From Candidatus Eiseniibacteriota bacterium (lineage in GTDB: Bacteria; Eisenbacteria; RBG-16-71-46; JABDJR01), in the NCBI GenBank assembly GCA_963762255.1, contig CAVXKA010000001.1, positions 224,001-288,000 on the forward strand: DNA of 64,000 nucleotides, written 5' to 3'. The notes below the pieces were generated by a model. That model saw nothing but the letters and a program-made list of their open reading frames with translations. It searched no databases and was not told the DNA's origin. Shown here piece after piece: positions 31,147 through 47,365 of this stretch (its first letter is position 1; each line of letters begins with the position of its first letter). Made by a program: the position numbers and the translations under genes.

Positions 31147-33573
31147 CTAGGGCAGGAGCAGCATTCTGCGCGTCGCGGTCTGGCCGCCCACGTTCAGGTT
31201 GTAGAAGTAGATGCCGGGCGTGGCCGGCCGGCCGCCGTCGTCACGTCCGTCCCACTGCACGATCTGAATGCCTTCATCGACGTTACGGTCAAGAAGACCC
31301 CGGACCCGGCGGCCCGTTACGTCGAAGATATCGAGCACCGCGCGTCCGGCGCGCGACGCGCGGAATTCGATCGTGGTGCGCGGGCTGAAGGGATTCGGGT
31401 AGTTCTGAGCGAGATGAATGGTGACCGCGGGCTTCGGCGCGTCCCCCGGCACTCCGGTGGTGATGTCGGTGCAGTAGTTCCAGATCCCCACCGGAGGCAT
31501 CACCGGATTCGCGACGGAGTAGACGAGGTCATCGAGGTAGACGGACCGGTTCGGATCCCCCGTGCACTCGTACGTGTCGTTGATCAGGTACTTGTACCCC
31601 AGGCTCAACCCGGTGGAATCGGGGAAGACGACCGCCACCGTGTAGGTGTGGTCGCTCCCGGTCGCATCCGGCGAGACGCCGTCGTCGAACATGGCGGTGA
31701 GCGAGGGGACGCTGAAGTCGAGCGGCAGCCGGTCGCCGTTCACCCCCACCGACGTGATCGGACCGCCGAACCAGTAGTCGGTGTCCACGCGGAAGATGAC
31801 CTTGATGGCCTTGTCGGTGACCGAGCACCGGTCGATGCCGCGGGCGGGCAGTTCGAGCGGCCCCAGGGCGCCGCCTACCGTGTCGAAGGCTGCGTCGTTG
31901 AGGTAGACGTCGCGGTTCGACTGCCCGAGGCACTCGTACGCGCTGTTGAAGGTGAACTTGTAGTACACGGTCTTGTACGTCCCCACCGGGAAGCGCACCC
32001 TGACCGCGTAGATGCCGTCCCCCGCCGTCTGGTCGGGCGAGACACCGTTATCGGCCATGAAGATCCCCGGGGTGGCGAAGCTCGGAAGCGGCGCCTGGTC
32101 GCCGGTCACCCCTACCGTGTCGAGCGGTCCGGGCCCGAACAGGTTCGCGTTGACGCGGAAGAAAACGTCGATGGGGTGCTGGATCACGGCGTCGGGGTTG
32201 TCGTCGTTCCAGAAGGCGCGCAGCGTGTCACTGCTTCCGGTGTCGCTGGTGACCAGGAACTGACGGTTGGAGCGCGGCTCGAAACCCTGCACGTGGTGGA
32301 GGAATTTCCACTCGAGCGTGGCCTCCGCCTTGCCGGTCAGCGTGCTCTTCGAAACGCTCATCGGCACCGTCGTCACGTAGACCGAGTCCACGTCCGGGTC
32401 CAGCATCAGCGCGTTGTCCTTGGTCGGATTGAACGTCAAGGGGACCAGGCTCCCCTCGATGAAGAAGGAGTCGGGCGGGCTCGAGTGGGTGATCATGAAG
32501 ACGCTCATGTCCCCTTCGAACCGCAGGCGCTTCAGGATGAACGACTTCTTGTTCCCCACGCCGTCGTTGACGATCGGGTTCCCGGCCTGATCCTGAACGT
32601 TGGTCACGGTCACGTCGTAGAAGCTCGCCGAGGGCGATGCGTTGGAGCCCAGGGTCAAGTGGACGATGGCGGCGTTGGAGCCGTCCACTACCGCACCGGT
32701 CACGGTGTAGGTGGCGGGACCGGCGTGAACCGCGTAGTTCGTCGGGGTGGTGGCGCCGGTGCCCACCGGCTCATTGAACTCCACGTCGATCTTGTTGGTG
32801 GACGTGGCGATCTGCTTCTGCGCGTCGACGGTGAACCCGGTCGCCTTGGCGCTCTGCAGCAGGGGCGGGGTGGTGTCGGAGGTTCCCTGCACCACAAAGG
32901 TCATCATGCAGCTCATCTCCACCGGGACGGTCACGTCCCAGGTCGTGCTGCTCGGGGTGGAAAGCTGGACGGCGTCGCTGCACATGGCGTCCAGCGGGCC
33001 CTTGGTGGTGCCGTCCTGGGTGACCCAGAACTCGACGTGGAGGGTGTCACCCGCACCCACGCCCAGCGTGCTGAGAGAGATCTTCCCCTCGGTGAAGGTG
33101 CCGTCGGCCATCCCCAACCCGTTCGGCCCATCGCTCACCACGGTCCAGGCCGCGCCGCCCCATTGGTAGAGCACCTCGTAGTTGTACGAGTTGCAGGAGG
33201 TGGGGACGACGTCGTAGAGATAGAAGTCCGGCTTCTTGGGCACGGTGTTCCACGCGATCTTGCGCGAGAACGCATCGGTGGGGCCGCCGGCCACCGTGTT
33301 CTTATCGATGGCCAGTCCCAGGTTGATATCGCACCACGTGCCGTGGTCGTAGTCGAAGCCGAAGTAGAGGAAGTTGGTGTCGTTGGTCAGGTAGATGTTG
33401 CCCTGATCCAACTGGGTGAACTGGGTGTCACCCCCGTCCGCGTCCAGCAAGTTGGCGACGTTGAAGTCGTTGGTGCCGTCCACGACGATCGTTTGCGGAA
33501 CGAAAGCCCACGCCGGCGCCGCCAAGAGCAGAGCAGCGAAGAGCGGGAGCAAAGACGCGCGCAGAGTGCTCAT
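31147..33573 (-). CDS. Secreted multidomain carbohydrate-binding protein (DOMON/CBM9-like, Ig, CBM20/choice-of-anchor-X-like repeats, FlgD-Ig CTD)
   Basis: Signal peptide AWA; IVVDG..ND.NFLYFG; repeats V.FRV..VGV.GD..PL..M.D.G.SPD...D..Y.V.V.FP....YK...YEC....R; CTD LAQNYPNPF..IFDVTGRRVR..WDGRDD..PGIYFY; GGAGG RBS. Confidence 0.75.
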   Translation of the reverse strand: MSTLRASLLPLFAALLLAAPAWAFVPQTIVVDGTNDFNVANLLDADGGDTQFTQLDQGNIYLTNDTNFLYFGFDYDHGTWCDINLGLAIDKNTVAGGPTDAFSRKIAWNTVPKKPDFYLYDVVPTSCNSYNYEVLYQWGGAAWTVVSDGPNGLGMADGTFTEGKISLSTLGVGAGDTLHVEFWVTQDGTTKGPLDAMCSDAVQLSTPSSTTWDVTVPVEMSCMMTFVVQGTSDTTPPLLQSAKATGFTVDAQKQIATSTNKIDVEFNEPVGTGATTPTNYAVHAGPATYTVTGAVVDGSNAAIVHLTLGSNASPSASFYDVTVTNVQDQAGNPIVNDGVGNKKSFILKRLRFEGDMSVFMITHSSPPDSFFIEGSLVPLTFNPTKDNALMLDPDVDSVYVTTVPMSVSKSTLTGKAEATLEWKFLHHVQGFEPRSNRQFLVTSDTGSSDTLRAFWNDDNPDAVIQHPIDVFFRVNANLFGPGPLDTVGVTGDQAPLPSFATPGIFMADNGVSPDQTAGDGIYAVRVRFPVGTYKTVYYKFTFNSAYECLGQSNRDVYLNDAAFDTVGGALGPLELPARGIDRCSVTDKAIKVIFRVDTDYWFGGPITSVGVNGDRLPLDFSVPSLTAMFDDGVSPDATGSDHTYTVAVVFPDSTGLSLGYKYLINDTYECTGDPNRSVYLDDLVYSVANPVMPPVGIWNYCTDITTGVPGDAPKPAVTIHLAQNYPNPFSPRTTIEFRASRAGRAVLDIFDVTGRRVRGLLDRNVDEGIQIVQWDGRDDGGRPATPGIYFYNLNVGGQTATRRMLLLP

Positions 33574-33646
33574 TTCGAACCTCCCCCAACCGGGTCGGAC
33601 ATCCGTCCGACGGATGCGAAGCCTGCGGGTCGCTAGTGTGGCGTGG

Positions 33647-33660
33647 TTTGACCGGTCCAA
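33647..33660. promoter_or_regulatory. LacI-type operator 1 (TTTGACCGGTCCAA)
   Basis: Near-palindrome with central CG, matching sites at 46186 and 47347; downstream of the predicted promoter. Confidence 0.75.
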
Positions 33661-33690
33661 CAGAGCGAGTTGGGCGACCGGTGAAGCGAC

Positions 33691-33837: not shown

Positions 33838-34677
33838 CTAGCCCTTCACGCCGCCGAGCGTCAACCCGCTCACGAGGAAGCGATTGAGGACAAGGAACAG
33901 CACCACCACCGGGATCGAGACCAGCACGCTACCCGCCGCGTAGTTGGCCCATTCGGTCTGAAACGTCCCGGCCAGGGCCTCCAGCCCCAAGGGAAGGGTG
34001 AAGAGGTTCTGGTTGGACAGAACGACGCGGGCCACGATGAACTCGGACCATGCCGCCATGAACGAGAAGAGCGCGGTGATGGTGAGTGCGGGCAAAGAGA
34101 GCGGGAGCACGATCCTCACGAACGCTCCCATCGGCGTCAGGCCGTCGATGAGCGCGGCCTCCTCAAGATCTCGGGGTATGGAATCGTAGTACCCCTTCAT
34201 CGTCCACACGCAGAACGGCAGTGCCGTGGTCACGTAGACGATCATGAGCCCCATGAGCGAGTTCAGGAGATTCAGCTTCTGCAGCAGCAGGTACATGGGA
34301 AGGAGGAGCATCGTGGCCGGGAACATCTGGGTGATCAGGAACGACGTGAGGCCGATCCGGTGCCCGGGGAAGCGGAATCGGCTGAACGCGTAGCCCGAGG
34401 TGGCCGCCAGCGCCACCCCGATCAGGGTCACCGAAAGCGATACGATGAGGCTGTTTTTGAGCCAGAGCAGGAAGGGCTTCTCGAAGAGGATGATCCGGTA
34501 CGCCTTGAAGCTCGCTCCTTCCGGGATCAGCCGCAGCGAGGTCGAATAGAGCTGGTCCCCGGGGCGCAGGGAAATCCCGATGATCTGGAGGATCGGGTAG
34601 AGGGTGAGAAGCGTCACCACGATGAGAGTCGCGTGGACCAGCGCCCGCTGCCACCGGGGGGCCTTGATCTCCCCCAT
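33838..34677 (-). CDS. malG: Maltose/maltodextrin ABC permease, MalG-like
   Basis: WLKNSL, GYAFSRFRFPG, EAA loop IPRDLEEAALIDG, TLPLGL, LVSGLTLGGVKG. Confidence 0.85.
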   Translation of the reverse strand: MGEIKAPRWQRALVHATLIVVTLLTLYPILQIIGISLRPGDQLYSTSLRLIPEGASFKAYRIILFEKPFLLWLKNSLIVSLSVTLIGVALAATSGYAFSRFRFPGHRIGLTSFLITQMFPATMLLLPMYLLLQKLNLLNSLMGLMIVYVTTALPFCVWTMKGYYDSIPRDLEEAALIDGLTPMGAFVRIVLPLSLPALTITALFSFMAAWSEFIVARVVLSNQNLFTLPLGLEALAGTFQTEWANYAAGSVLVSIPVVVLFLVLNRFLVSGLTLGGVKG

Positions 34678-35555
34678 CAGTACACCGACTCCGTGCCCCG
34701 GGAGAAGCGCATGGTGATGAACACGAAGGCCAGCAACAGGAGGAAGATCACGATGGAAAACGCGGCGGCGTACCCGTAGCGGTACAGGGTGAATGCCTCG
34801 TTGTAGACGTAGGTGACCAGAATGTGGCTCTTATTGGCGGGCTTTCCGCCGTTGGTCACCAGCCAGATCACGTTGAGGTTGTTGAAGGTCCAGATGGTGC
34901 CGAGAACGATGGCCGGCACCAGCACCGGCTTCAGGAGCGGCAGCGTCACGTGGCGCAGCTTCCGCCACCAGTTGGCGCCGTCGATGGCGGCCACCTCATA
35001 GAGCTCGTGGGGGATCGACTGGAGCCCCCCGAGCGCAATCACCATCATGAACGGAAAGCCGAGCCAGATATTGGCGATGATGGCGGCGCTGAAGGCGCCG
35101 GTGGCGTCGGAGAGCCAGGGCACTTGCGGCAAACCGAACTTGTGGAGCCACAAGTTCACCGCCCCGTACTCGTAGTTGAAGAGTCCCCGCCAGGTCAGCG
35201 CAGAAATGTACTGCGGGATGGCCCAGGGGAGAATCAAGAGCGCCCGGTACGCCCATTGGCCGCGGATGGGGCGATTGAGCAAGATGGCCAGGGCGACACC
35301 GAAGGTGACGTGGAAGAAGAGGTTCACCACCGTCCACACCACCGTCTTCAGGAACACCCAGTACATCGGCGCGCTCGTGAAGAGTTCCACGAAGTTCCGC
35401 AATCCGACGAACTCGGGGTTGCGGAACGTGTAGAGGTTCATGTTGGAGAAGGCGATGCGGAAGTTGTAGAGGAACGGGTAGGCCACGACCAGGACCATGA
35501 CCAGGATGGACGGCAGGACGAGGGCGTAAGCGAGAGGAATGCTGCGACGGTTCAT
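34677..35555 (-). CDS. malF: Maltose/maltodextrin ABC permease, MalF-like
   Basis: FVGLRNF, LILPWAIP, WLGFPFMM..GGLQSIP.ELYE.A.IDGA, FNNLNVI, ILVTYVY. Confidence 0.85.
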   Translation of the reverse strand: MNRRSIPLAYALVLPSILVMVLVVAYPFLYNFRIAFSNMNLYTFRNPEFVGLRNFVELFTSAPMYWVFLKTVVWTVVNLFFHVTFGVALAILLNRPIRGQWAYRALLILPWAIPQYISALTWRGLFNYEYGAVNLWLHKFGLPQVPWLSDATGAFSAAIIANIWLGFPFMMVIALGGLQSIPHELYEVAAIDGANWWRKLRHVTLPLLKPVLVPAIVLGTIWTFNNLNVIWLVTNGGKPANKSHILVTYVYNEAFTLYRYGYAAAFSIVIFLLLLAFVFITMRFSRGTESVY

Positions 35556-36838
35556 CGCTTCATGGACTCGATCTTCTCCACCGCGTCCGCCTGCATGTCG
35601 TGCGCCGCCGCCTCGGGAGTCTTGCTCCCGTTCATCACCGCCTGCATGTTCGGGCGCATGGCGTCCCAGATCACCCGCATCTCAGGCACCACCGGCATGC
35701 GACGCCCTACCTTCCACTGCTCCAGCGATGCCAGCAGCGTTGCGTCGCCGCGAATCTCCGGCCGGTCGTAGGCGGCTTGGATGCTGGGGAGAATGCCCAG
35801 CTCGACCCCGAACCGCGCGGAAATGTCGGCCGAGGTGAGGTAGTCCAGCAGTTCTTTCACCACCGCCTCCTTGGCGGCGGGGAGGTTCACGTTCACCGAG
35901 TATCCCTTGCTCCCGATCATGGGCGCGGCCCAGGGTCCACCGGGCTCCGCGCGCGGGATGCGGGCGAGCTTGAACGGCACCCCGGCCTGCTGGTAATCGC
36001 GGAAGGACCAGGGACCGTTCACGATCATGGCCACCTTGCTCCCCTTGAACAGAGTGTCCATGAGTTGGTAGTCGCACTCCCTGGGCATGACCTCGTATTT
36101 GTCGCGCAACTCCCGGAGGAACGTCAGAGCCTTCACGGTGGCCGGACTGTCGAGGGTGGGCCGCCGCTCGGCGTCCATAACCCAGCCCCCGTAAGCCGTG
36201 ATGAAGGGAACGAGCCAGAAGGGCTCGTTGAACTCGAAGGCCAGCCCGTACACATCGACGCGTCCCGACGACTTCTTCATGGCCGCCTGGGCCGCCCGGA
36301 TCAGGTCCGCGAAGGTCTCGGGCGGGGTGCCGACCAGTTCCGTGTTGTAGAGCAGGTTCAAGTGGTTGCCGACCTGGTCGGGAAGCGCCCACACGTGTCC
36401 ATCAAGGGTATCGAGCGCGGCGGGCAGGAACCGCGCCCATGTCGCGGGGGGCAGGAACTCATCGAGCGGGCGGATGATCTGGAGAATGGAGAACGGACCT
36501 ACCTGGTCCGACGGACCGTACACGAGATCCGGTCCCCCACCGGCCAGCGCGGCGGTCTGGTACTGGCTGCGCAGGTTCTCGGTGTCGTAGTGCACGAGCG
36601 AGACCGTCAGCCCCGGGTGGCTCGCCTGGTACTCGGCGAGGATCGCCTCCATCACCGCCTTCTCCTGCGGGTCGCGCTGCTCCCAGATGACGATCTCCAC
36701 CGGGCCGGCGGGCTTGTCTCCCCCGCTCTTCTTGCCGCCGCATCCGCTAAGAAGCAGACCCGGGATCGCGGCCAGAAGCACCAGGGCCGCCGCGAACCCG
36801 TGACCGAGCCGTGACCTGTGCCGGAGTCGCATGGGCAT
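35552..36838 (-). CDS. malE: Maltodextrin-binding ABC substrate-binding lipoprotein (MalE/MdxE-like)
   Basis: Lipobox LSGC; GGGPDLVYGPSD, LLYNTELV..PP.TF, AMIVNGPW, MPVVPEM..IW. Confidence 0.8.
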   Translation of the reverse strand: MPMRLRHRSRLGHGFAAALVLLAAIPGLLLSGCGGKKSGGDKPAGPVEIVIWEQRDPQEKAVMEAILAEYQASHPGLTVSLVHYDTENLRSQYQTAALAGGGPDLVYGPSDQVGPFSILQIIRPLDEFLPPATWARFLPAALDTLDGHVWALPDQVGNHLNLLYNTELVGTPPETFADLIRAAQAAMKKSSGRVDVYGLAFEFNEPFWLVPFITAYGGWVMDAERRPTLDSPATVKALTFLRELRDKYEVMPRECDYQLMDTLFKGSKVAMIVNGPWSFRDYQQAGVPFKLARIPRAEPGGPWAAPMIGSKGYSVNVNLPAAKEAVVKELLDYLTSADISARFGVELGILPSIQAAYDRPEIRGDATLLASLEQWKVGRRMPVVPEMRVIWDAMRPNMQAVMNGSKTPEAAAHDMQADAVEKIESMKR

Positions 36839-36845
36839 TCCCTTC

Positions 36846-37322
36846 TTAAGGAACAACGAGCAACGAGTTCTTGCCGCCGTACCCATCGTCGGCGGACTCC
36901 GGGTTCGCGGGGTCCGTCTTCCACTCGGAGCCGTTCACCACGAACTTGTATTGGTAGCTCCCGGGATCCAGAGGCTTCACGACAAACCACACTCCACCAT
37001 CCCCCTTCGTCAAGGGATCAGCCGAGGTGTTCCAACTGTTGAAGGTCCCGGCGAGGCTCACGTTGGCGGCGCTGGGGGCACTGAGCGTGAACCGCCACCC
37101 CGCGTCGGTCTTGGTGGGAGCCTGGGCGGCGCCACCTGCTTGGGCCTGGCCCGCCGGAGCCTGTACCGCCGGGGCGGCCGGAGCCGCGCCTCCGCTCGGT
37201 TGAGCGAGGCCGGGGTACGGGCGCGTGCGATCGCAACCCGAGGCCACGAGCAGAAGGGCCAGAGCTGCCGCGATGCCCGGAAGAACGCGGCCGCTCACCG
37301 ACAAGATCGTGCGTGACTTCAT
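36846..37322 (-). CDS. Small CBM48 (glycogen-binding, AMPK-beta-like) lipoprotein
   Basis: Lipobox ASGC; VSLAGTFNSW..GVW..L.PG.YQYKFVVNG..W.TDPANP..DGYGG.NS; GGAGG RBS. Confidence 0.85.
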   Translation of the reverse strand: MKSRTILSVSGRVLPGIAAALALLLVASGCDRTRPYPGLAQPSGGAAPAAPAVQAPAGQAQAGGAAQAPTKTDAGWRFTLSAPSAANVSLAGTFNSWNTSADPLTKGDGGVWFVVKPLDPGSYQYKFVVNGSEWKTDPANPESADDGYGGKNSLLVVP

Positions 37323-37383
37323 GGATGTCCTCCATCGAGGCGGGGCGAGCGGCTTCATGCCGCCCACCCGCGCCGGCGAGGGA

Positions 37384-39633
37384 TCATTGCTGAGCTACGG
37401 TGAACTGCTGGCGCCGCTCGTCGAGGGTGAAGACATACGTCCCCGTCCCCGGGAACTGCACCTTGAGCGCGGTCCCTTGCCCGCTCACCGGCCGCACCGG
37501 GAACGTCCCGGGGAGCGTGAGCAGCGTGTTCTCGTCACCGCCGTAATCTGGCGGGGTGTCGAACGCGCCGTCGGTCAGGAACTTGAAGAACTTCGGCGCC
37601 CCGATCATATCCGCCGTGATCGCGAGCGTGACCGTCCACACGCAAGGCGGGGACTCGACCATCTGCGGGGCCTCGGCGGGATCCCACGAGGTGAACTCGC
37701 CGACGATCTGGATCGTGTTGAAGGCCGAAGTCCCGGCCGCCAGGGTGATGCTGCCCAGGTCCACATTGGCGCCCGCCACCGCCACACCGGAGCGGGTCTC
37801 TTTGACGAAGCAGGGAGAGGAGATCTCCACCTTGTACGTGCCGTTGGGCAGCGTCTGGAATCGGAACGTCCGCGCGGACGCGTCGCTCTTGACCGTGGCC
37901 AGCGGCGTTGTGGCCGTGCCCTGGTACAGGTCCACCGTCGCCTGCGGGTAGGGGCCGGTGGAAAGACCCGCGAACGCTACCGTCCCGGTGATCCCGCCGG
38001 TGGGCACGGTTCCCAAAAGGGTCGCGGAGAACTCGAGCCCGGACTCGTCGAGCCGGAACACGTAGTCCCCACCGGTCAGCACCGAGATCTTGAGCGCCGT
38101 CCCCTGACCGGAAACTGGCATCACGGCATAAGTCCCCGGCAGAGGCAGTGTCTCGCTCTCCGATCCGCCGTAGTCCAGCGGGCTGTCGAAGGCGCCGCCG
38201 GTGACGAACTTGAAGTTGTAGGTACCGGGTTGAATGGTGAGGGTGTCGACCCAGACGCAGTTCGGGAGTTTGGTCATGGACGGGAATTGCAGGCTCCACG
38301 CGTTGAAATCGCCCAGAACCTGGATCTTCGTGAACGCGCTCTCGCAGCCAGGCACCAGGGTGATCGTCCCGATATCGAAGACCTCGCCCCTCACGTACGC
38401 GACCGCGTTATGGCGCCCCTCGAGGTACCCCGGTGCGGTGACGACGACGTCGTAGTTCCCGCTGTTGAGCCCCTTGAAGGCGAACGCGCTGTCGGTCTCC
38501 GCGCTTGCCAGAACCGTCGTCGTTCCCGCGGTCCGGACCTTCACGGTGGCGGTGGGCCGTGTCGAAGGATGATCGGCGAACTGCACCACGCCGCTCAAAC
38601 TGCCGGTCAACTCGGCCAGGGTAATTGCGCCGAGATCCGTGTCCTGGCCGTTGGTGAAGGCCACGCCGGTTCGGCGCTCCTGCGCGAAATCGGTCGCGGT
38701 GATCACGACGTCGTAGCTGCCGGTCGCCAACCCAACGAATGCAAACGCGCTGTCGGTCTGCGCGCTCTGCACCTCCGTCGAGGATCCCGCGTTGAAGACC
38801 GTGACCGTGGCTTGCGGCCGCGGGCGCGGATTCCCCTGGAAGAGCACCACACCCTTGAGCGCTCCACCGGGCACTTCGAGCGTGACGTCACCCAGGCGAG
38901 ATTCCCGATTATGCCGGACGACGATACCACCGAGGCGCTGCGTCAGGTACCCGGGGCTCGTCACCGTGACCTCGTAGAGCCCGACCCCGACATCGATGAA
39001 GCTGAACTCGCCGGTCTGAGGATCGGTGGAGGCGATCAACGAACCCGCCTCCGCCCCCGGAGGGGTGATGGAGAACTCGCCCGTCCCCTCGTTCAGCACG
39101 ATCTGGTATTCCCCGGCGGTCTTCACCGAGATCTTGAGTGCGGTTCCCTGCCCCGAGACAGGGAGGGCGGGATAGGTTCCGGGCACGACCAGCACATCGT
39201 TTTCGCTTCCGCCGTAGTCGGGCGGACTGTCGAACGCCCCTTCGGTGACGAATTTGAACAAGTACGTGCCGGCCTGGATGGTCAGGGTGTCGATCCAGAC
39301 GCACTCCTGATCCTTGGTCATGAGCGGAGCCAGGGTCAGATCCCACGAGGTGAACTCGCCGGCGATCTGGATCTTGGTGAACTGGCTCTGACACACCCCC
39401 GCCGAGGGGGCGGCCACCACCACGCGGGCGCTGGGATAGGGCGGCGTACCGAGTCCCTGGAACACGACGCGTCCCACGATGTCCCCGCTGCCGCCGGGGC
39501 CCTCGATGCGCGTGACATCGGGGTTGTCCCCGCAGCCACCGAGCCATCCCAGGACGGCCGTCACGAGGAGCGCCGCGGCGATTCGAGTCGCCCGTCGCCG
39601 GGTCCTATGCAAAGGATCGGATGCCATCCACAT
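37384..39633 (-). CDS. Surface lipoprotein with three SusE/SusF-like starch-binding repeats and carboxypeptidase-regulatory-like domains
   Basis: Lipobox LGGC; 3x F..IQ..G(E/D)F..W....M.....CVW..TL.I...FKF.T.GAFD.P.DYGG.E..PGT....PVSGQGTALK; interspersed F.F.GL..G.Y.V..TA domains. Confidence 0.75.
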   Translation of the reverse strand: MWMASDPLHRTRRRATRIAAALLVTAVLGWLGGCGDNPDVTRIEGPGGSGDIVGRVVFQGLGTPPYPSARVVVAAPSAGVCQSQFTKIQIAGEFTSWDLTLAPLMTKDQECVWIDTLTIQAGTYLFKFVTEGAFDSPPDYGGSENDVLVVPGTYPALPVSGQGTALKISVKTAGEYQIVLNEGTGEFSITPPGAEAGSLIASTDPQTGEFSFIDVGVGLYEVTVTSPGYLTQRLGGIVVRHNRESRLGDVTLEVPGGALKGVVLFQGNPRPRPQATVTVFNAGSSTEVQSAQTDSAFAFVGLATGSYDVVITATDFAQERRTGVAFTNGQDTDLGAITLAELTGSLSGVVQFADHPSTRPTATVKVRTAGTTTVLASAETDSAFAFKGLNSGNYDVVVTAPGYLEGRHNAVAYVRGEVFDIGTITLVPGCESAFTKIQVLGDFNAWSLQFPSMTKLPNCVWVDTLTIQPGTYNFKFVTGGAFDSPLDYGGSESETLPLPGTYAVMPVSGQGTALKISVLTGGDYVFRLDESGLEFSATLLGTVPTGGITGTVAFAGLSTGPYPQATVDLYQGTATTPLATVKSDASARTFRFQTLPNGTYKVEISSPCFVKETRSGVAVAGANVDLGSITLAAGTSAFNTIQIVGEFTSWDPAEAPQMVESPPCVWTVTLAITADMIGAPKFFKFLTDGAFDTPPDYGGDENTLLTLPGTFPVRPVSGQGTALKVQFPGTGTYVFTLDERRQQFTVAQQ

Positions 39634-39671
39634 GCCCTGTCCCTCTTCCCGGTCCGCGCGGGACCGGTGGG

Positions 39672-40073
39672 TCAATCGACAATCAAGAGCGAGTTGAAAC
39701 CGCCGTATCCGTCGTCCTTGCGCTGGGGATTGTTGGGATCTTCCTTCCAGTTGTTCTCGTCGACGACGAACTTGTACTCGTAGCGTCCCGGCGGGAGGTG
39801 TTCGCGCCGTTCCCAGATGCCATCCCCATCCGGATCTTCCATCTTGCCCACCTGGTAGGTGCCGGTCTGCGCCTGGCCGCCGAGCCAGTTGTTCTCGGGC
39901 CAGTTGCCGGCGAGCTGAACCACACGGGCCGCCGGCGCCTGAAAGCGGAACAGTACGGTCCCGTCCGATTGACGGGTGGGAGGCGGCAGCCGCTTCTTGA
40001 TGAAGTTGAGGCCGCAGCCGGTCTGTCCCGCCGCCAGGGCGATCAGGATCAGACCGAGAACGAGCTTGCGCAT
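39672..40073 (-). CDS. Small CBM48 lipoprotein
   Basis: Lipobox QTGC; FRFQAP.A..VQLAG, DGDGIW..LPPGRYEYKFVVD..W..DPNNP..DGYGGFNS. Confidence 0.85.
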   Translation of the reverse strand: MRKLVLGLILIALAAGQTGCGLNFIKKRLPPPTRQSDGTVLFRFQAPAARVVQLAGNWPENNWLGGQAQTGTYQVGKMEDPDGDGIWERREHLPPGRYEYKFVVDENNWKEDPNNPQRKDDGYGGFNSLLIVD

Positions 40074-40090
40074 GAAAGATCACCTCTCCA

Positions 40091-42271
40091 TCAGAACTTG
40101 ATAATCGCCTCGAGCTGGAAGCGCTTCTCGTCTTCCAACTCCTGCTCCGCGCTGCGGACGGTGCCCGCCATGTTCAGGTACTGGGTCTTCGCCGCGTTGC
40201 CGTCGGCTCCCCGCTCGAAAATGAACATATCCCGGCCGATGTGCTTGTACTCGTTGGCCACCCCGTCGATCACCCACGGGTCCACTCCCCAGGACAGGCC
40301 CATCTCCATGGCCGGCGTGAACCGGTACTTGAGCTCCACGAAATGCGAGGTGAAGGTGTCCTTGAGCCGGAGCACCGGATCGTCGTAACGGACAATACGC
40401 GTGTCGGTGTTGAGACCGAGCCGCCGGGTGAGATCGAGGTGGAACGCGATCTGGTTGTCCCAGTACTTGGGCTTACGGCTCAAGCCGGTCGAATTCAGGA
40501 TTGCCCAGTACTCCACCGAGACATTGCGCGGGCGGTAGAAGGTCCACTTGGCGTGCGGCTTCCACGAGACCACGTCCTCGCCGCCCAGCATCACCAGACG
40601 GTCCACCGTGACCACGTGCTCGCCCTGCTCCAGCCAGAAGTTGTTGCTGTCGAACCAGAACTGATCGGTCCACGTCGCGCGGCGGTCGTAGCGGAAATCG
40701 TAGTAGTCCACCTTGAGCTCGGCTTCCCAGGGCCAGAGCTTCCATTCCGCTCCGTCGAACTTCACCCCGGTCCGGTACGTGGTCACCGCGTTGTAGCGGG
40801 TCTCGGGCGCGTACGTGCGATTGACGAGATCCGCGTCCTGGAACTCCATGGCGCCGGTCAGGTGCCAGCCTCGATAGGCGAAGTAGTGCACTCCGGCCGT
40901 GAACCGGCGGCTGGTGTTGAGCCGGAGGGTGCGGCTGTTCTCTCCACGCAGGGTCTGGGTGGTATCCGCGCCGGTGCCGTTGACGGAATCGATCCCGGAG
41001 TAGGTGATCTGGCGGTACTCGCCCTTGCCCGTTCCGATCCAGCTCTCGCCGCCGAGGACCTCGCCGAACAACTCGACGCCGGAGGGATCGTTCCGATAGC
41101 GGAGATCCAACCCGCCGCCGTGCCAGCTCTCCACCGTGCGCGGGAAGTAGCGGACGAAAAGACGGCGGGAATCTGCGGAGAGCGCTTGGTCGTCCACGAT
41201 CTGGACCAGCGCCCCCGGGTTCCGCCCGCGATCCACTCGGTAGGAGACTCCGGCGGTCAGACTCTCTCCGAGCGGGCGCGTCCACCGTGTGGCCAGCACG
41301 TTCTTGTTGTTGTCGGACGTGTTGACGTTGTACCGGCTGGTCCCGAACGCGGTGCCGCTCGGGGCGCCGATCACATCGCTCTTCAGGGTCTGGAGCGGAA
41401 CGTCCTGCGGGCTGTCGACGCCGCCGGTCCGGAAATCATCCGAGTACAGAAGGCGCCCCTCGAACTTGCCGAACTGCCGCCATGCCATCACTCCCTGCTG
41501 GTTGTAGCCCCAGGAGTGGTGGTACAGGCCGACGTCGCCGACCAGGTGCAGCGGATCGTCCCACACGCCCACCGAATCGTTGTCGAAGGCGACGAGGTTG
41601 ATGTCCTCGTTCTGCAGGAGGAGGCTCCCCCGGTCGAAGCGGAGGTTCGACTCCCAGAGTTGCACGTTCTGGTTCTGGTTGTTGATGTTGGTGAGAACGT
41701 GGGCGGTCAGATCTTCGTTCACGCGGATATTGAAGTCGAGGTCGATGTCGAAGTTGGGCCGGTCCAGATTCCACTCGGGGTTGCTCCCGGGGATCTTGCG
41801 GTCCTGCATGAGCACGATGTAGCGGGATCCCAGGAACACCTTGGGGGAGAGCTCGGTGTTGGAGGTGGCTTTCAGGACCACCACTTTTCCGTCCCCGCCG
41901 ATCTTCACCAGCGAGTTGCCGAAGTCGCCGCCGGTGACCGGATTCTCCGGATCCGCCACCCATTGTCCGTCGACCACGAACTTGTACTGGTGCTCGCCGG
42001 CGGTGAGCGGAACAACGACGGACCACACCCCGTCTCCACTCCGGGTCAAGGGCGCGACGGTGGCATTCCAATCGTTGAAATCGCCGGCCAGGCTTACCTG
42101 GCCCGCGTAGGAATCGGTGTAGGAGAACCGGACGCCTCCCGCCGCCGATTCGACTCCCGCCCCGGCCGGGGCCGCCCAAGGCAGCGCCAGCACCAGGACG
42201 AGCAGCGCCCATCCGATCCGCCACAGGCCCCTCGGCGGGGCCGTCCGAAACGAGGTCGGGATCGATCGCAT
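40091..42271 (-). CDS. CBM48-fused putative outer-membrane beta-barrel protein
   Basis: Signal peptide; CBM48 VSLAGDFNDW..HQYKFVVDGQWVADPENP; amphipathic beta strands; terminal FQLEAIIKF beta-signal. Confidence 0.7.
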   Translation of the reverse strand: MRSIPTSFRTAPPRGLWRIGWALLVLVLALPWAAPAGAGVESAAGGVRFSYTDSYAGQVSLAGDFNDWNATVAPLTRSGDGVWSVVVPLTAGEHQYKFVVDGQWVADPENPVTGGDFGNSLVKIGGDGKVVVLKATSNTELSPKVFLGSRYIVLMQDRKIPGSNPEWNLDRPNFDIDLDFNIRVNEDLTAHVLTNINNQNQNVQLWESNLRFDRGSLLLQNEDINLVAFDNDSVGVWDDPLHLVGDVGLYHHSWGYNQQGVMAWRQFGKFEGRLLYSDDFRTGGVDSPQDVPLQTLKSDVIGAPSGTAFGTSRYNVNTSDNNKNVLATRWTRPLGESLTAGVSYRVDRGRNPGALVQIVDDQALSADSRRLFVRYFPRTVESWHGGGLDLRYRNDPSGVELFGEVLGGESWIGTGKGEYRQITYSGIDSVNGTGADTTQTLRGENSRTLRLNTSRRFTAGVHYFAYRGWHLTGAMEFQDADLVNRTYAPETRYNAVTTYRTGVKFDGAEWKLWPWEAELKVDYYDFRYDRRATWTDQFWFDSNNFWLEQGEHVVTVDRLVMLGGEDVVSWKPHAKWTFYRPRNVSVEYWAILNSTGLSRKPKYWDNQIAFHLDLTRRLGLNTDTRIVRYDDPVLRLKDTFTSHFVELKYRFTPAMEMGLSWGVDPWVIDGVANEYKHIGRDMFIFERGADGNAAKTQYLNMAGTVRSAEQELEDEKRFQLEAIIKF

Positions 42272-43857
42272 CAGAAGGTCCCCTTCAAAGTGAGACGGAC
42301 CAGATCCTTGTTGTCGGCGCTTCCCTCGAGGTTTCCCTCGTAGACGGGGTTGCTTCCGCCGCCGATCCAGAACGGACCGTAGGCCAGGAACAGCTCCAGG
42401 TTGGGGCGGGGCCGGTACTGAAGCTCGCTGAAGAGCCCCTTCCTCACCCGGGCGGGGTCGTTGCCGAACGTGAAACGGTTGTACATCTTGACCGTGCTGC
42501 TGATGTTCACCGAGGTTTCGAACGAACCGAGTTCCTTCTGGAAGACGGTGCTGAGATCCCGGATCCGGAACTGCAAGCGCATCCAGGCCAACTTGTTCTC
42601 GACCTGCATCTCGGCGAAGACGTCGTCGTTGTCGGTGACCTGCTTGATCGTGGTGTTTCCGTCGTTCTGCCAGTCACGGGTGGTGCGCTTGCGGTAGAAC
42701 AGCTTGCTGGTGAACCCGTTCACGAACTCGACGTAGGCTTCGGAGTAGAACTCGGTGACATGCCGGCTCTGGTTCACGCGCTTGGTATAGGAGAGGTAGT
42801 TGTTCGAAAGCGTGATGGCCCGCCCCGGAACCAGGTACCAGGTGTTGACGTAGTAGCCGTTCTCGTCGCTGTTGCCGTCGCCGAGCTGGTTGCGGAACTG
42901 GGGCCCGTAGTACCAGCAACTGGGGGCGACGTTGAGATACCCGACCCGATAGTCCCCCACCCGTAGAGACCGGATCTCCGCTTTCACCACCGCGTCGTCG
43001 GGAAGCCCGTCCTCGGGGTGGCGGAGGCTGAACTTCGAGACGTCCATCGCGTCGCTGCGGTAGGGGGTGCCGACCGTGCGCTGCTGGCCTTCCGCATACT
43101 CGAGCGAGAAATCGATGTTGCTCCACGTGTAGCGCAGGTCGCCGGCCCAGACTTCGGTGACCGAAGCCTGATCCACCCCCGATCGCTTCACCGTGTTCTT
43201 GTGGTTCCAGGTGACGCCGCTACGGAGCTTGCCGCCGAAGAACTCGCGCCGGAGTCGGCCGATGTAGGCGTCGTCGGTGGCGGTCGGCTTGTCGGGAAGA
43301 GAACCGTTGGAGGGATTGCTCTGGGAAGAAAAGTCGCTCGCGATCAGGTTGATGTAGGTGGAGCCCTTGACCCCCAACATGGAATCGCGCGACCAGAGGT
43401 TAAGCCGCACGCCTTGCGCGTTGCCGCCGTCGTTGGAGGATCCCCCCTGGACGACCTGGATGAGGTGGTTGTCCACCCAGAAACGATCCTGGCGGCTGAA
43501 CAGGTAGGTCTCGATCCCCTTTCCGTTCACGTCCCGGTTGTAGCGCACGTGGGCTTCTCGGTACTGGAAGAGCGGTCTGCGGTTGCTGTTGCTCCCGGTG
43601 TTCCACTCCGCCTCGAACTTGGTGAATGCCTCCAGACCCGGGATCGGCTGGCTGAACAGCCGGAACTGCGTGTTGTTGAAGGTGTCGTTGCTGTTGCTGT
43701 CGAAGTCCCACTCGTAGCGGCGGTCCTGCTTTCGGACGTCGAGCTGGAAGACGTACTCGCCCTCAAGGCGGGTGAACGCCAGGACGGGGAGGGCCCCGGC
43801 CAGCAGGGCGGAGACGGCGAGCGCGGCAACGAGGAGGCGGGGCGAGCGCGGGGTCAT
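42271..43857 (-). CDS. Putative outer-membrane beta-barrel (porin-like) protein
   Basis: Signal peptide VLA; alternating aromatic/hydrophobic strands; terminal VRLTLKGTF; translationally coupled on both sides. Confidence 0.7.
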   Translation of the reverse strand: MTPRSPRLLVAALAVSALLAGALPVLAFTRLEGEYVFQLDVRKQDRRYEWDFDSNSNDTFNNTQFRLFSQPIPGLEAFTKFEAEWNTGSNSNRRPLFQYREAHVRYNRDVNGKGIETYLFSRQDRFWVDNHLIQVVQGGSSNDGGNAQGVRLNLWSRDSMLGVKGSTYINLIASDFSSQSNPSNGSLPDKPTATDDAYIGRLRREFFGGKLRSGVTWNHKNTVKRSGVDQASVTEVWAGDLRYTWSNIDFSLEYAEGQQRTVGTPYRSDAMDVSKFSLRHPEDGLPDDAVVKAEIRSLRVGDYRVGYLNVAPSCWYYGPQFRNQLGDGNSDENGYYVNTWYLVPGRAITLSNNYLSYTKRVNQSRHVTEFYSEAYVEFVNGFTSKLFYRKRTTRDWQNDGNTTIKQVTDNDDVFAEMQVENKLAWMRLQFRIRDLSTVFQKELGSFETSVNISSTVKMYNRFTFGNDPARVRKGLFSELQYRPRPNLELFLAYGPFWIGGGSNPVYEGNLEGSADNKDLVRLTLKGTF

Positions 43858-44732
43858 CGGCGGGCCCCCCTCTCGGGAAGACTCAGACGGAGCGATGCCC
43901 GGTAGGTGTTGCCCAGCATCGCGTGAGTGAGGAACGCAGTGTCGACTTCCCAACGCGTTCCCTTGACGCCGATGCCGCCGGCGAATTCCTCGTCGTAGAT
44001 CCCGGCGCGGACGGCGAAAACATCGTAGAACCAGATCTCCCCCGCATAGTTCCACGTGGGATGATCGCCGAGGTCGGACCGGCTGCACATGATCGTCGAT
44101 TCCGGACGCCAGCGATAGGACGCCGACAGCTCCACCCCGCCGGGAACCTTGTCTCCCCCGCTGTCCCCGATGAAGTTGAACTCCGGCTCGCCGAGATTTC
44201 GCAGCACGGCGCCGAATCGCCAGTTCGTCCGTTCTTGCCACAGGAGTCCGAGATCCCCGGTGAACTTGGTCTTGGATCCGAAATCGCGGTCGGGCCCACC
44301 CGCGTGACTGTCGAAGGATACGGCGGCGAGCTTACCGGTGGCGCCGAGGTGAACGGCCCGGTTGTTGTCGCGATATACCCAGCGCCCGTAGGAGAGACCG
44401 ATCAGATCCTCGGACACCACCCCATCCAGAGCCAGTCGGTGCCAGGATAGAGCCGTTCCCCCTCCGGCGAAGGGGAGCCCGGCGACCACGGACCCCGAGG
44501 TGAGATCCTCGACCATATAAGGACGCGAGTAGGTGAATAGACCCTGGGGCTGAGCGAGGACCGACAGCGCTGCGGGATTCCAGTGAGCGGCGGAAACGTC
44601 CTCGACGGCAGCGCCGAAGCTCCCGGCCAAGGCAAGTCCCCGCGCATCCACGTCAACACGTTCGAAGTAGGCACCGGCCGGAGCCGCGAGAAGAAGCACG
44701 GCTAGAAGCGCAAGCGGCAGCGCGCGCGTCAT
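43854..44732 (-). CDS. PorV/PorP(SprF)-like (FadL superfamily) beta-barrel
   Basis: Signal peptide; hallmark ARGLALAGSFGAAVEDVSAAHWNPAAL; AVRAG..AGGIG..VDTAF..H..LGNTYRASL. Confidence 0.75.
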   Translation of the reverse strand: MTRALPLALLAVLLLAAPAGAYFERVDVDARGLALAGSFGAAVEDVSAAHWNPAALSVLAQPQGLFTYSRPYMVEDLTSGSVVAGLPFAGGGTALSWHRLALDGVVSEDLIGLSYGRWVYRDNNRAVHLGATGKLAAVSFDSHAGGPDRDFGSKTKFTGDLGLLWQERTNWRFGAVLRNLGEPEFNFIGDSGGDKVPGGVELSASYRWRPESTIMCSRSDLGDHPTWNYAGEIWFYDVFAVRAGIYDEEFAGGIGVKGTRWEVDTAFLTHAMLGNTYRASLRLSLPERGARR

Positions 44733-44772
44733 CTCATCGCCCTCCCGCCGTTGGAACGATCCGGCGCCCGCA

Positions 44773-46131
44773 TCACCGGACCACCGCGATGCCGCGCCGG
44801 GCCTGGTCCTGGTCGGGCTCCAGGACGATCTGAAGGACGTAGATGCCGGCCTTGAGCAGCATCCCGTCGTCGTCGCGTCCGTCGAAGACGTTGGCCACAT
44901 GGGGTTCCGGAGCCTCCAGCTCGGCGGGCGTGAAGGCGTAGCTGTCATAGATCGTCCGCACGCGCTCGCCGTTCATATCGAAAACCCGCGCGGTGAACTT
45001 GATGCGCCGGGTGCGCCGCAGGTTCTCGTCGGTGATCCGCGGCGTCACGGTGAACCGGAATCCAAGGACATCGCCGAGCTCGGGAGCGATCGCCTTGGGC
45101 ACCGCCGTGAACTGATCGATCTGCAGGGCTTGCCCACGCACCGGCGGCGGCACGAAGAAGTAGCTCTCGACGTAGGCGGCATACTCCTCGGGAGTCTGCT
45201 GCGCGGAGGGCACCCGAACCGGAACGCCGAAATCGGCCACATGGTCCGGCGTGGCTCCCCCCGCAGCATTCACACGGTCGAGGGGGATGCGCACGAAGTT
45301 GTCCAGCACCACCGGGACCGCCGAGTCGACTTGCGTACCGCTGATGTTGTCGGGAGCGGTGTCGGGCCCGCCCCCGCCGTCGCCGCCGGTCGTGACCCAC
45401 GCGGCGAGCCGGATCTCCGTGACATCCGTGGGCATGACATAGACCGAGTCGCCGTAGTCGGCGCTGTACTCCCATGTCCCCTTGCCGAGGAAGATCGTAT
45501 CCCAGGGGATCGCCGCCTCCATGGCCCGGTTGGGAAGATCGCCGTTGAAGTTGGCGACGGTGAGGAAGCTCTCGGTAGCGACCTGGCTGTCCCGATTGGG
45601 CCCGGTGTAAGTCCAGAGCTGGGGAACGGTGTTGCGGTCCCAGGTGGCAAGGAAGACCTCGGGATTGAATCCGTTGTCGAACGAGACCGAGCGCCGCCAC
45701 CCTCCTTCGATCGACGAGAACGAGGTCCACCCCGGGTTCTGGCGGTCGGGCAGGGTGTCGAAGAAGATCATGATGTTGTTGTTGAAGCTGTACCCCTCGA
45801 CCGCCACATAGAGAAAGCGTGCGTCCCACGTGATGCGAATGTTGTTGATGTCGTTGAAGCGGCCCCACTGGGAGTCGATCGCGCTCTCCTCGGGCGCCCC
45901 ATTCGGCGTGCGCTGAAAGATCGTCTCGTCGTCCAAATAATCCGCGGTCGACCCGTCGATGACGATTCGATCGGTGAGGTCGATCGCGGTGCCGGCGCGA
46001 GCGATCGGAGCGGACAAGAAGAGAGCGAGAATGACCACCGCCGGAAGTGCCCGGCAGGCGGGCAAACCGCCGCGCAGCGCACTCTGCGAGGCCGTTCGCA
46101 GCCAAGAGCGGAGGGACGAATGGAGGTTCAC
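44773..46131 (-). CDS. Secreted DOMON/CBM9-like protein with type-B-like C-terminal sorting domain
   Basis: Signal peptide ARA; IVIDG..DI..IRITWDARFLYVAV..MEAAIPW; CTD VFDMNGERVRT..FDGRDDDG..AGIYVL..IAVVR. Confidence 0.7.
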   Translation of the reverse strand: MNLHSSLRSWLRTASQSALRGGLPACRALPAVVILALFLSAPIARAGTAIDLTDRIVIDGSTADYLDDETIFQRTPNGAPEESAIDSQWGRFNDINNIRITWDARFLYVAVEGYSFNNNIMIFFDTLPDRQNPGWTSFSSIEGGWRRSVSFDNGFNPEVFLATWDRNTVPQLWTYTGPNRDSQVATESFLTVANFNGDLPNRAMEAAIPWDTIFLGKGTWEYSADYGDSVYVMPTDVTEIRLAAWVTTGGDGGGGPDTAPDNISGTQVDSAVPVVLDNFVRIPLDRVNAAGGATPDHVADFGVPVRVPSAQQTPEEYAAYVESYFFVPPPVRGQALQIDQFTAVPKAIAPELGDVLGFRFTVTPRITDENLRRTRRIKFTARVFDMNGERVRTIYDSYAFTPAELEAPEPHVANVFDGRDDDGMLLKAGIYVLQIVLEPDQDQARRGIAVVR

Positions 46132-46185
46132 GCGTTCAAGCCTTCCGAGTGAGGGCGAGCCTGATGCGGAGAGGATAGGGTCCCG

Positions 46186-46199
46186 TTGGACCGCTCCAA
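46186..46199. promoter_or_regulatory. LacI-type operator 2 (TTGGACCGCTCCAA)
   Basis: Palindrome immediately downstream of the -10 box, over the predicted TSS. Confidence 0.8.
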
Positions 46200-46228: not shown

Positions 46229-46268
46229 GCCATCGGGGACATCGGAGGAGGATCCGTGCGCCGACCGG

Positions 46269-47309
46269 TCAGGGTTGGGACACGGGCGGTGGGCCGCTTG
46301 ACTCGCGCGCCACCAACCGGGTGGGAACGACCCGCTCCACCGGTTCCGGATCCCGGAGTTCGAGGATCTCGAGCAGGAGCTGGGTGGCCATGCGGCCGAT
46401 GTCGTAGATGGGCTGCGAGAGGGTCGTCAGACGGGGGCGCACGTAGGTGGTCAGCCGGATGTCGTCCGCTCCAACGACCGTCAAGTCCTCTGGGACGTGC
46501 AGTCCGAACTCCTCCTGCGCCACGCGGAGCGCTCCCAGGGCCATCATGTCGTTGGCCGCCATCAGCGCCGTCGGGCGAGGGCGACGTACGAGAAGCGCCC
46601 GCGCCGCCTCGGCCCCACTCGATTCTGAAAAATTTCCCCAAAGACGAAGGTCGTCCTCCATGGCGATTCCCGCTTCGGCGAGGCCGTCCAGAAATCCGAG
46701 GCTGCGGTCCTGCCCCACCGTCGTGTTCTCGAGCCCGCCGATGAACGCGATGCGGCGGTGCCCGAGCGAGACGAGGTGACCGACCATCTCGCGGGCCCCG
46801 GACCGGTTGTCCGCGTAGACCGCGCTCGCTCCCGGCATGCGGGTGTTGACCAGCACCAGCGGCGTCCGCAATTCGATCAACTCGCGGACGTAGGCATCCT
46901 CCTTGATCGTGCCGAGCAGCAGCATGCCGTCGGCGGCGCCCTGCCGAAGCAGGCGGCGATGGGTCGCGTGTTCGAGGAAGCGCGCGTTGGCCATTTCGAT
47001 CACGAGTCGATACCCGGCCTCGGAGAGCACGTCGGAAATGCCGCTGATGGCCTCGGCGAAATAGACGTCGGCGAGCACGTGCGATCCGGTGGCGGGCAGG
47101 ATGACCGCCGCGGCGTTGGCGCGCCGGCGCGCGAGGCCGCGGGCCATGGTGTTGGGCTGGTAGCCCGCTGTCTCGATCACTTCGAGCACGCGGTCCCGGG
47201 TCACGGCGGTGATGCGCGGGTCGCCGTTGATGACGAGCGACACCGTCGAGCGCGAGACGCCGGCCAGGCGCGCGATGTCCCGAATGGTGGGCTTCGCAGT
47301 TTCGTGCAC
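46269..47309 (-). CDS. LacI-family transcriptional repressor
   Basis: TIRDIARLAGVSRSTVSLVIN, YQPNTMARGL, LGHRRIAFI, NDMMALG, VPEDLTVVGADD, LTTLSQP; GTG start after a GGAGAGG RBS. Confidence 0.94.
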   Translation of the reverse strand: MHETAKPTIRDIARLAGVSRSTVSLVINGDPRITAVTRDRVLEVIETAGYQPNTMARGLARRRANAAAVILPATGSHVLADVYFAEAISGISDVLSEAGYRLVIEMANARFLEHATHRRLLRQGAADGMLLLGTIKEDAYVRELIELRTPLVLVNTRMPGASAVYADNRSGAREMVGHLVSLGHRRIAFIGGLENTTVGQDRSLGFLDGLAEAGIAMEDDLRLWGNFSESSGAEAARALLVRRPRPTALMAANDMMALGALRVAQEEFGLHVPEDLTVVGADDIRLTTYVRPRLTTLSQPIYDIGRMATQLLLEILELRDPEPVERVVPTRLVARESSGPPPVSQP

Positions 47310-47346
47310 GAGAATCCTCTCCGAAAAACCGCGGGGATTCGTTGCG

Positions 47347-47365
47347 TTGGATCGGTCCAATTATA
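47347..47365 (-). promoter_or_regulatory. LacI-type operator 3 (TTGGATCGGTCCAA) abutting a TATAAT -10 box: autoregulation
   Basis: Minus strand reads TATAATTGGACCGATCCAA, upstream of lacI. Confidence 0.75.

Follow-up and report, generated by a model that had tools for sequence, protein, structure and literature searches.

Two paralogous plug-less beta-barrels, one fused to a CBM48 module, as a candidate TonB-independent passage for alpha-glucans in Candidatus Eisenbacteria

Introduction

Large glycans cross the outer membrane through small specific porins, which take short oligosaccharides, or through SusC-type TonB-dependent transporters. A stretch of 64,000 nucleotides (the window) from a Candidatus Eiseniibacteriota bacterium (GenBank assembly GCA_963762255.1, contig CAVXKA010000001.1, positions 224,001 to 288,000), an uncultured soil or sediment bacterium of Candidatus Eisenbacteria, raises the question of which passage would serve a starch-type gene cluster in which two adjacent genes, named here A and B, encode large predicted beta-barrels with no recognisable TonB plug, the second one with an N-terminal CBM48 glycogen-binding module. 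The answer put forward here is that A and B are paralogous plug-less barrels within a four-gene core and would let alpha-glucans pass the outer membrane by a new route that does not depend on TonB, a reading to which we give a probability of about one half.

Results

Genes A and B and their coupling

The interval 40091-43857 of the window consists exactly of genes A and B, both on the minus strand (Table 1). Third-position GC of the frames in this region ranges from 0.82 to 0.88 in a window of 63-70% GC, and these are therefore real frames. The N-terminus of A reads MTPRSPRLLVAALAVSALLAGALPVLA|F..., with a signal peptide at about residues 1-27, and its C-terminus is ...LTLKGTF (codons ...GGG ACC TTC TGA); B also shows a signal peptide and ends in ...EAIIKF. 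The mature chains have 501 (A) and 587 (B) residues, 1088 in sum. The TGA of A and the ATG of B share one base (ttcTGATGcg), and the start of A is itself overlapped by the stop of the preceding gene (ATGA), which encodes a PorV-like barrel.

A genome scan gave 68 related loci, in metagenome-assembled genomes (MAGs). The one-base overlap of A and B is present in 35 of the 67 loci with a complete 3' end of A, and the remaining 32 show gaps, of about 0-35 nt in most loci of the main clade. In a distant clade (loci L055-L068), where the identity of A is 27-31%, the two genes no longer overlap: most loci have a gap of 29-100 nt, and L068 has one of 262 nt. The stop/start overlap between the PorV-like gene and A is found in 47/65 loci. 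A terminal Phe closes all 49 aligned relatives of A and at least 90% of the 46 relatives of B. Both the TGATG coupling and the terminal Phe residues, which a preliminary description of this stretch had reported, are borne out. In one locus (L054:8001-11469), an exception to the gap sizes of its clade, the match to A stops at about residue 194 and the B frame runs upstream (917 aa), which looks like a frameshift or an assembly error in that MAG.

Barrel fold and topology

AlphaFold2 models built with the family alignments (49 sequences for A and 46 for B) show an all-beta barrel for each protein, with a predicted local distance difference test score (pLDDT) of 86.4 and a predicted template modelling score of 0.78 for A, and of 84.8 and 0.73, respectively, for B. 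Membrane strands were counted manually, the profile-profile alignment given below serving to match DSSP elements of B with those of A, and amount to about 24 in each protein; the count could be 22-26, since two elements of B are short (166-169 and 312-316) and one strand of A is bulged (289-302). Hydrophobicity alternates between strand faces, with mean fractions of 0.62/0.29 in A and 0.65/0.29 in B. The signal peptides, the even number of strands, the alternating faces and the C-terminal aromatic residue support the assignment of A and B to the outer-membrane-type beta-barrels, the nature that had been proposed for them.

The connections after even-numbered strands are of 2-10 aa each (43 aa in sum in A and 43 aa in B), and those after odd-numbered strands are mostly long, up to 55 aa (sums of 171 aa for A and 224 aa for B). 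In outer-membrane proteins the long loops lie outside, and the short turns and both termini are periplasmic. By this rule both termini would be periplasmic, and with them the CBM48 of B, which connects to strand 1 on the short-turn side; the models fit this location, as the preliminary description had expected. Three of the long loops are conserved: L3 (A 122-147, B 231-258), L9 (B 528-566) and L12 (A 494-518, B 662-716), the copy of L12 in B having a 24-residue helix. Conservation is 0.64-0.72 for L3, L9, L12, the CBM48 and the linker of B, against 0.21-0.51 for most of the strands b10-b20.

A split barrel, of which A and B would be the two halves, had been suggested as an option. The gene overlap and the common motifs described below fit it, and nothing more does; the predictions close each chain by itself into a barrel of some 24 strands, each has a signal peptide and a terminal Phe of its own, and the two align end to end instead of complementing each other. 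No fused A-B protein was found among proteins of 925-2640 aa, which is weak evidence. Since each of A and B is a whole barrel, the split barrel is rejected, with practically no chance left to it.

Paralogy of A and B

The best BLASTP match between A and B is the C-terminal motif (FSELQYRP... in A and FVELKYRF... in B, E 0.017), and a second pair of segments, LFSRQDRFWVDNHLIQVV and AFDNDSVGVWDDPLHLVG, is aligned in the profile-profile alignment of the two proteins. For this alignment, a broad profile of A contained 137 sequences, including 88 full-length matches from a search of 1.84 billion proteins, and a broad profile of the B barrel contained 58 sequences, including 12 of the 14 distant-clade orthologues (those of L062 and L068 are absent). 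Compared with hhalign, the broad profiles match with a probability of 96.6%, an E-value of 5e-10 and a score of 87. A greedy alignment (-mact 0.05) extends over 432 columns, A 20-494 against B 135-662, which is the whole barrel, and both segment pairs are collinear and in register within it.

Three kinds of control were used: reversed profiles gave E-values of 0.25 and 0.32; shuffling in blocks of 25 columns, repeated ten times, gave scores of 37-42, in which the C-terminal motif block alone was matched; and the family of the co-encoded PorV-like barrel gave 0.15 against A and 0.029 against B. As these controls fail, the signal between A and B is not a generic likeness of barrels, and it is well supported from the profiles that A and B are distant paralogues. 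Both the similar segments and the distant paralogy noticed earlier are thus confirmed.

The CBM48 module of B

Residues 37-119 of B match the Pfam models CBM_48 (PF02922) with 43.3 bits (cut-off 22.4) and AMPK1_CBM (PF16561) with 52.4 bits (cut-off 26.8), which verifies the N-terminal CBM48 of the preliminary description, and both models are matched by all 46 members of the B family. The module aligns with the carbohydrate-binding module (CBM) structures of AMPK beta1 and beta2 (E 4e-13), with the common motifs FNxW, GEHQYKF and VDGQW. Four residues, W68, K97, W104 and N119, are invariant across the 46 relatives and lie within the FNxW, YKF and GQW motifs; they may be the equivalents of the sugar-contacting residues of AMPK beta. 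From this conservation, the CBM48 of B appears functional. The linker that follows (residues 125-143, with a nearly invariant ATSNT..K) has a conservation of 0.67, yet its residues 135-140 show pLDDT values below 50, a combination which would fit a segment that becomes ordered only on a partner.

The four-gene core

The gene preceding A encodes a 292-aa barrel which matches the NCBIfam model PorV_fam (NF033709) with an E-value of 2.5e-17 and 63.5 bits, under the cut-off of 90, and Pfam TraF_2 with 35.4 bits, above the cut-off of 25; a match to Toluene_X is weak. By a strict rule this PorV-like gene comes before A in 58/60 loci, the two misses being gene overlaps. By the same kind of rule a CBM48 open reading frame (ORF) is found at most 500 nt after A in 63/65 loci, and one lies downstream of A in all 67 loci with a complete A end, the order of A and B being constant. 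A small CBM48 lipoprotein gene follows B in 54/54 loci with enough flank. The distant clade retains the arrangement PorV-like gene, A, B and lipoprotein gene, by which the core is defined as these four genes. The two-gene unit of the preliminary description is too small: the PorV-like barrel and the CBM48 lipoprotein are equally conserved.

The 133-aa lipoprotein is the best-conserved member of the core, with 56-88% identity in the main-clade alignment. Among 43 aligned orthologues, the tether right after the lipobox Cys, F-[IV]-K-[KR]-R-L-P-P-P, is nearly invariant, which hints at a fixed docking site.

This gene arrangement bears on whether A and B act together. They could both be alpha-glucan pores which act separately, as monomers or homo-oligomers, and each might take chains of its own range of lengths or type of branching; the overlap of the genes would then just equalise their amounts. 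Each is predicted as a complete barrel alone, and the overlap is lost in the distant clade, which agrees with separate pores; the nearly complete co-occurrence of the two genes by the strict rule, its completeness in loci with a whole A end, the constant order and the recurrence of the overlap in about half of the loci speak against them. We consider separate pores doubtful. Strict co-occurrence and translational coupling suggest a putative heteromer of A and B.

Family spread and searches against known families

Relatives of A number 153 (E <0.001) among 8000 candidates scored, and an exhaustive profile search of the 1.84 billion proteins gave 180 clusters; 48 of these clusters were scanned, and 47 show no Pfam family and one shows a CsgG-like N-terminus. 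B has 51 relatives: 49 contain the CBM48, and two, on short contigs (1.8 and 2.1 kb), are fragmentary. The relatives of A and B are named 'hypothetical protein' or 'glycogen-binding domain-containing protein', and one A relative in UniRef is named 'Alginate expo...'. By title, 39 of the 68 loci belong to Candidatus Eisenbacteria/Eiseniibacteriota, four to Gemmatimonadota, one to each of Krumholzibacteriia and Effluviviaceae, and 23 are labelled 'bacterium'. To our knowledge, the Eisenbacteria phylum is known from metagenomes alone.

A shows no Pfam or NCBIfam match, and B shows none outside the CBM48, with models such as Plug, TonB_dep_Rec, usher and sugar porins included in the scan. In a sequence search of PDB, A gave nothing real (the best match, a tubulin chaperone with an E-value of 0.83, is due to chance), and B gave matches to the CBM48 alone and none for the barrel. 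An hmmscan of the 49 A relatives (E<=1) found Porin_4 in three of them, with a best value of 0.0034, and otherwise chance matches. With regard to TonB-dependent transporters, neither Plug (PF07715) nor PF00593 was found in A or B by the Pfam scan, which does detect a true transporter of this type in one related locus (L026). The first predicted strand of A starts at residue 31, straight after the signal peptide, and no clear plug is seen, which upholds the earlier remark that neither a plug nor a TonB box was recognised. The Foldseek query TM-scores (TMq) to the barrels of such transporters, which have 22 strands against the 24 or so counted here, are 0.39-0.46 for A and 0.24-0.32 for B. Sugar porins of the LamB/ScrY type are neither matched in Pfam nor alike in strand number, about 24 and not 18. 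For chaperone-ushers, there is no Usher Pfam match, and the connection between strands 6 and 7 is just 10 aa in A and 2 aa in B.

By language-model features the nearest named cluster is DUF6029, with 0.96 for A and 0.93 for B. Passages of one paper link DUF6029 to Wzi-like polysaccharide porins and describe barrels of the DUF6029/Wzi type as 18-stranded (PMC9603273). An hmmscan with DUF6029 (PF19494) is blank in the 49 A relatives (E<=1), in 48 wider A relatives (E<=0.001) and in the 46 B relatives (E<=1).

These likenesses are the ground for another explanation, in which A and B export an alpha-glucan, as capsule or exopolysaccharide, and the periplasmic CBM48 recruits like the N-terminal domain of an usher. 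An N-terminal periplasmic domain followed by a barrel of about 24 strands is an usher-like layout, FimD and PapC give Foldseek TMq values of 0.39-0.48, and the nearness to DUF6029 and the UniRef name of the one A relative point the same way; the layout and the DUF6029-like features leave a small chance for export. Against it, no gene for a glycosyltransferase, a synthase, Wza or Wzc is seen in the cluster, A and B are accompanied by a LacI repressor, an importer of the binding-protein-dependent type and, in related loci, amylases, and the DUF6029 scans are blank. Export is thus improbable.

Literature searches, which covered mostly titles and the openings of abstracts, returned no publication on the A/B family or on a giant barrel that lacks a plug and has a CBM fused to it. 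Judged by the searches above, A and B are a new family and a new architecture within the known class of outer-membrane glycan passages.

The wider cluster

On the minus strand the order of genes is: LacI, a 452-aa protein, PorV-like barrel, A, B, lipoproteins of 133, 749 and 173 aa, MalE-, MalF- and MalG-like proteins, and an 837-aa protein (Table 1). The best NCBIfam matches of the importer genes are MalE, MalF and MalG, all under the equivalog cut-offs, and MalF/G-like genes are found in 22 of 30 full-flank loci. A Pfam scan of neighbours covered 48 of 62 ORFs from 13 related loci, leaving out known homologues of B and of the multi-CBM lipoprotein and all of L065. Amylases of glycoside hydrolase family 13 (GH13) are present in 6/13 loci, five of the six with two to four CBM48 repeats, and a CBM20 protein in 1/13. 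Judged by its gene content, including the CBM48 lipoproteins, the MalEFG-like importer and LacI here and GH13 elsewhere, the cluster is an alpha-glucan (starch, glycogen or maltodextrin) utilisation locus, in agreement with the glucan context assumed before. No SusC-type receptor was detected in 12 of the 13 loci scanned. The locus L026 shows one (CarboxypepD_reg, Plug and barrel; 1302-4232); its gene and a 440-aa ORF for which Pfam gave no match (4278-5597) directly precede the cassette and share its strand.

The 452-aa protein has no Pfam match; a presumed CBM9-like N-terminal domain found no support from any tool and was dropped. Compared by hhalign, the last 70 aa of the 452-aa protein show homology with the sorting tails of three further proteins of the window (97.1, 92.4 and 92.0%), the first of these values belonging to the tail of the 837-aa protein. 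It adjoins the PorV-like gene in 47/57 loci. In the distant clade this slot is occupied by giants of about 1800 aa with Glucodextran_C (L059:1395-6797, L061:1682-7030 and L063:1638-7004), in all three loci scanned, and a FlgD_ig tail was detected in one of the three. The tailed protein and the PorV/PorQ-like barrel suggest, by analogy, a cargo-anchor pair like PorZ-PorQ.

The 837-aa protein matches TIGR04183 with 35.1 bits (cut-off 23) and choice_anch_X, and shows no recognised catalytic domain and no relative in a sequence search of PDB. Strong matches to it are found in 12/30 full-flank loci (tblastn identity 40-48%, E 0), and homologues are located at L015:2915-5428, L044:2961-5531, L008:14754-17045, L023:521-2797 and L029:15128-17203. 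A glycoside hydrolase or binding protein not described so far is one possibility for it.

The sorting tails lead to a further explanation, in which A and B serve as a platform for the export and/or anchoring of proteins with tails of the type IX secretion system (T9SS), the PorV-like barrel docks on A and the CBM48 serves only as a tether to the substrate. PorV docks on the SprA translocon, and the PorQ-PorZ pair is a precedent. In favour of a platform, translational coupling links A to a PorV/PorQ-like barrel, the gene ahead of that barrel encodes a sorting-tail-like C-terminus, and the same slot holds the Glucodextran_C giants, one of them with a detected tail, in the distant clade. On the other side, no SprA chain is among the Foldseek matches listed, the strands of A and B are 24 and not 36, the sugar-binding module of B would be on the periplasmic side, and the core is always accompanied by the CBM48 lipoprotein and usually by a sugar ABC importer. 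We regard a platform of this kind as rather unlikely.

A promoter and terminator scan of 31000-47600 was at the level of shuffled sequence (2 promoters against 1.7, and 14 terminators against 9.6). FlgD_ig-type tails end at least three window proteins besides the 452-aa protein (3504-6395 on the plus strand, and 52616-62992 and 31147-33660 on the minus strand), including a 3458-aa giant of Ig-like repeats, and this tail looks like a general surface-sorting signal of the organism. Beside the LacI gene, 47361-49574 (minus strand) encodes an ABC-2 permease that also contains, by fusion, a CAAX/Rce1-like protease domain; at L001:1298-4186 the permease-protease fusion has an added ABC ATPase domain. 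This unusual fusion is conserved beside the cluster.

Table 1. Features of the alpha-glucan cluster, in positions of the window
Feature	Position	Strand	Basis
Gene A: predicted outer-membrane beta-barrel, undescribed family, 528 aa	42271..43857	minus	translation
Gene B: signal peptide, CBM48, conserved linker and predicted barrel, 726 aa	40091..42271	minus	translation, Pfam, AlphaFold2
A/B stop/start overlap TGATG	42269..42273	minus	sequence junction
CBM48/AMPK-beta-type glycogen-binding module, B residues 37-124	41900..42163	minus	PF02922 and PF16561 above cut-off
B barrel domain, residues 144-726	40094..41842	minus	DSSP of AlphaFold2 model, strand map, conservation
PorV/PorQ/FadL-like small barrel, 292 aa	43854..44732	minus	NCBIfam PorV_fam, Pfam TraF_2; stop overlaps A start
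CBM48 lipoprotein, 133 aa: lipobox, tether, CBM48	39672..40073	minus	Pfam AMPK1_CBM, orthologue alignment
LacI-family regulator, cluster head	46269..47360	minus	Pfam, NCBIfam
452-aa secreted protein, C-terminal FlgD_ig/T9SS-tail-like domain, start codon uncertain	44773..46131	minus	hhalign of tail
749-aa lipoprotein, CBM48/X25-like and four CarboxypepD_reg domains, SusE/F-like make-up	37384..39633	minus	Pfam
173-aa lipoprotein with CBM48	36846..37367	minus	Pfam
MalE-, MalF- and MalG-like importer genes (span 33838..36886)	35552-36886, 34677-35555, 33838-34677	minus	Pfam, NCBIfam
837-aa protein, T9SS type A sorting tail	31147..33660	minus	TIGR04183, choice_anch_X

Discussion

Among known systems, the LamB/ScrY porins, like the passage proposed here, do without TonB, and their genes go together with those of a MalEFG-type importer, controlled by a regulator that responds to sugar; A and B also have a long conserved loop after strand 5, at the position of porin loop L3. 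LamB is an 18-stranded homotrimer, whereas A and B are two paralogous barrels of about 24 strands, one of them fused to a CBM48, without a Pfam sugar-porin match and with no LamB among the Foldseek matches listed. The SusC/SusD system with SusE/F/G shares the superphylum (according to MAG labels), CBM lipoproteins, surface amylases (here in related loci) and a dedicated barrel; it differs in that the A/B cluster shows no Plug, TonB box, TonB_dep_Rec barrel or SusD, and has an ABC importer at the inner membrane and a paralogous barrel pair with a PorV-like partner. PapC and FimD, among the best Foldseek matches of A, share an N-terminal periplasmic domain followed by about 24 strands. Ushers export pilus subunits, and A and B lack the Usher Pfam match, the inserted plug domain and the C-terminal domains. 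The barrels of the DUF6029/Wzi/AlgE type, uncharacterised or polysaccharide-linked, are the nearest by language-model features; A and B differ from them in lacking a PF19494 match, in their catabolic gene context and in strand number. As in PorV-SprA and PorQ-PorZ, a PorV/PorQ-like barrel has as neighbours a barrel of very large size and a protein that ends in a T9SS-type tail, but the PorV-like score stays below its cut-off, A and B show no likeness to SprA and no PorU or PorZ homologue was seen in the cluster. PorV and PorQ anchor surface components in the T9SS, and the coupled PorV-like barrel adjoins a tailed surface protein, which suggests a similar anchoring role for part of the core.

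A and B probably replace the usual sugar pores in a starch cluster. The absence of TonB machinery makes it most economical to see in them a passage that is passive, yet specific for dextrins. Under the proposed mechanism, T9SS-tailed surface proteins would bind or cut the polymer outside the cell; the 452-aa protein, which the PorV-like barrel may hold, would be one of these, as would the multi-CBM48 GH13 amylases in other genomes. A and/or B would let dextrins pass the outer membrane independently of TonB, and loops L3, L9 and L12 may shape or gate the lumen, forming its constriction. The periplasmic CBM48 of B and the CBM48 lipoproteins would hold the entering chain, which would be handed to the MalE-like protein and then taken by MalFG across the inner membrane. 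We infer in this way the channel function, the substrate, the association of A with B and the part that the CBM48 would play in capture or as a ratchet, and such a ratchet is plausible.

Several observations weigh against a TonB-independent passage made of these two paralogues. With narrow profiles (49 A against 46 B sequences) the hhalign match is weak (12.8%, E 0.0022), and the best 150 of the 180 matches of the A-profile search in 1.84 billion proteins contain no CBM48-bearing B-type protein. Foldseek against PDB gives, among the matches listed, generic barrels for A (siderophore receptors, ushers and porins, TMq 0.19-0.48) and generic TonB receptors for B (TMq 0.20-0.32). The side on which the CBM48 lies follows from the topology rule only, and the module could still be threaded through the lumen to the surface. 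A plug-less barrel of 24 strands would need loops or a partner as a seal. The SusC-type receptor of L026 means that import there could use that receptor, and no glycoside hydrolase was found in the window, where 31 of 35 candidate ORFs were scanned.

In its most elaborate form, the proposal is that the PorV-like barrel, A and B make up one complex, whose wide lumens would admit long or branched alpha-glucans, and that the periplasmic CBM48 modules, that of B and that of the tethered lipoprotein, bind the chain as it emerges and rectify its diffusion inward, without TonB or ATP at the outer membrane. We offer this tentatively, with the odds well against it. If true, CBM48-rectified uptake would be a third route of polysaccharide import in diderms, beside diffusion porins and TonB-powered SusCD.

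Were A and B an anchoring platform, the PorV/PorQ paradigm would reach past the classical T9SS. If they are an import route, as preferred here, they would be a new transporter family, covered by no Pfam or PDB entry, and a testable example of binding-driven (ratchet) uptake. They would also allow a better reading of carbon use in Eisenbacteria MAGs, in which these genes are now annotated as 'hypothetical' or 'glycogen-binding domain-containing protein'.

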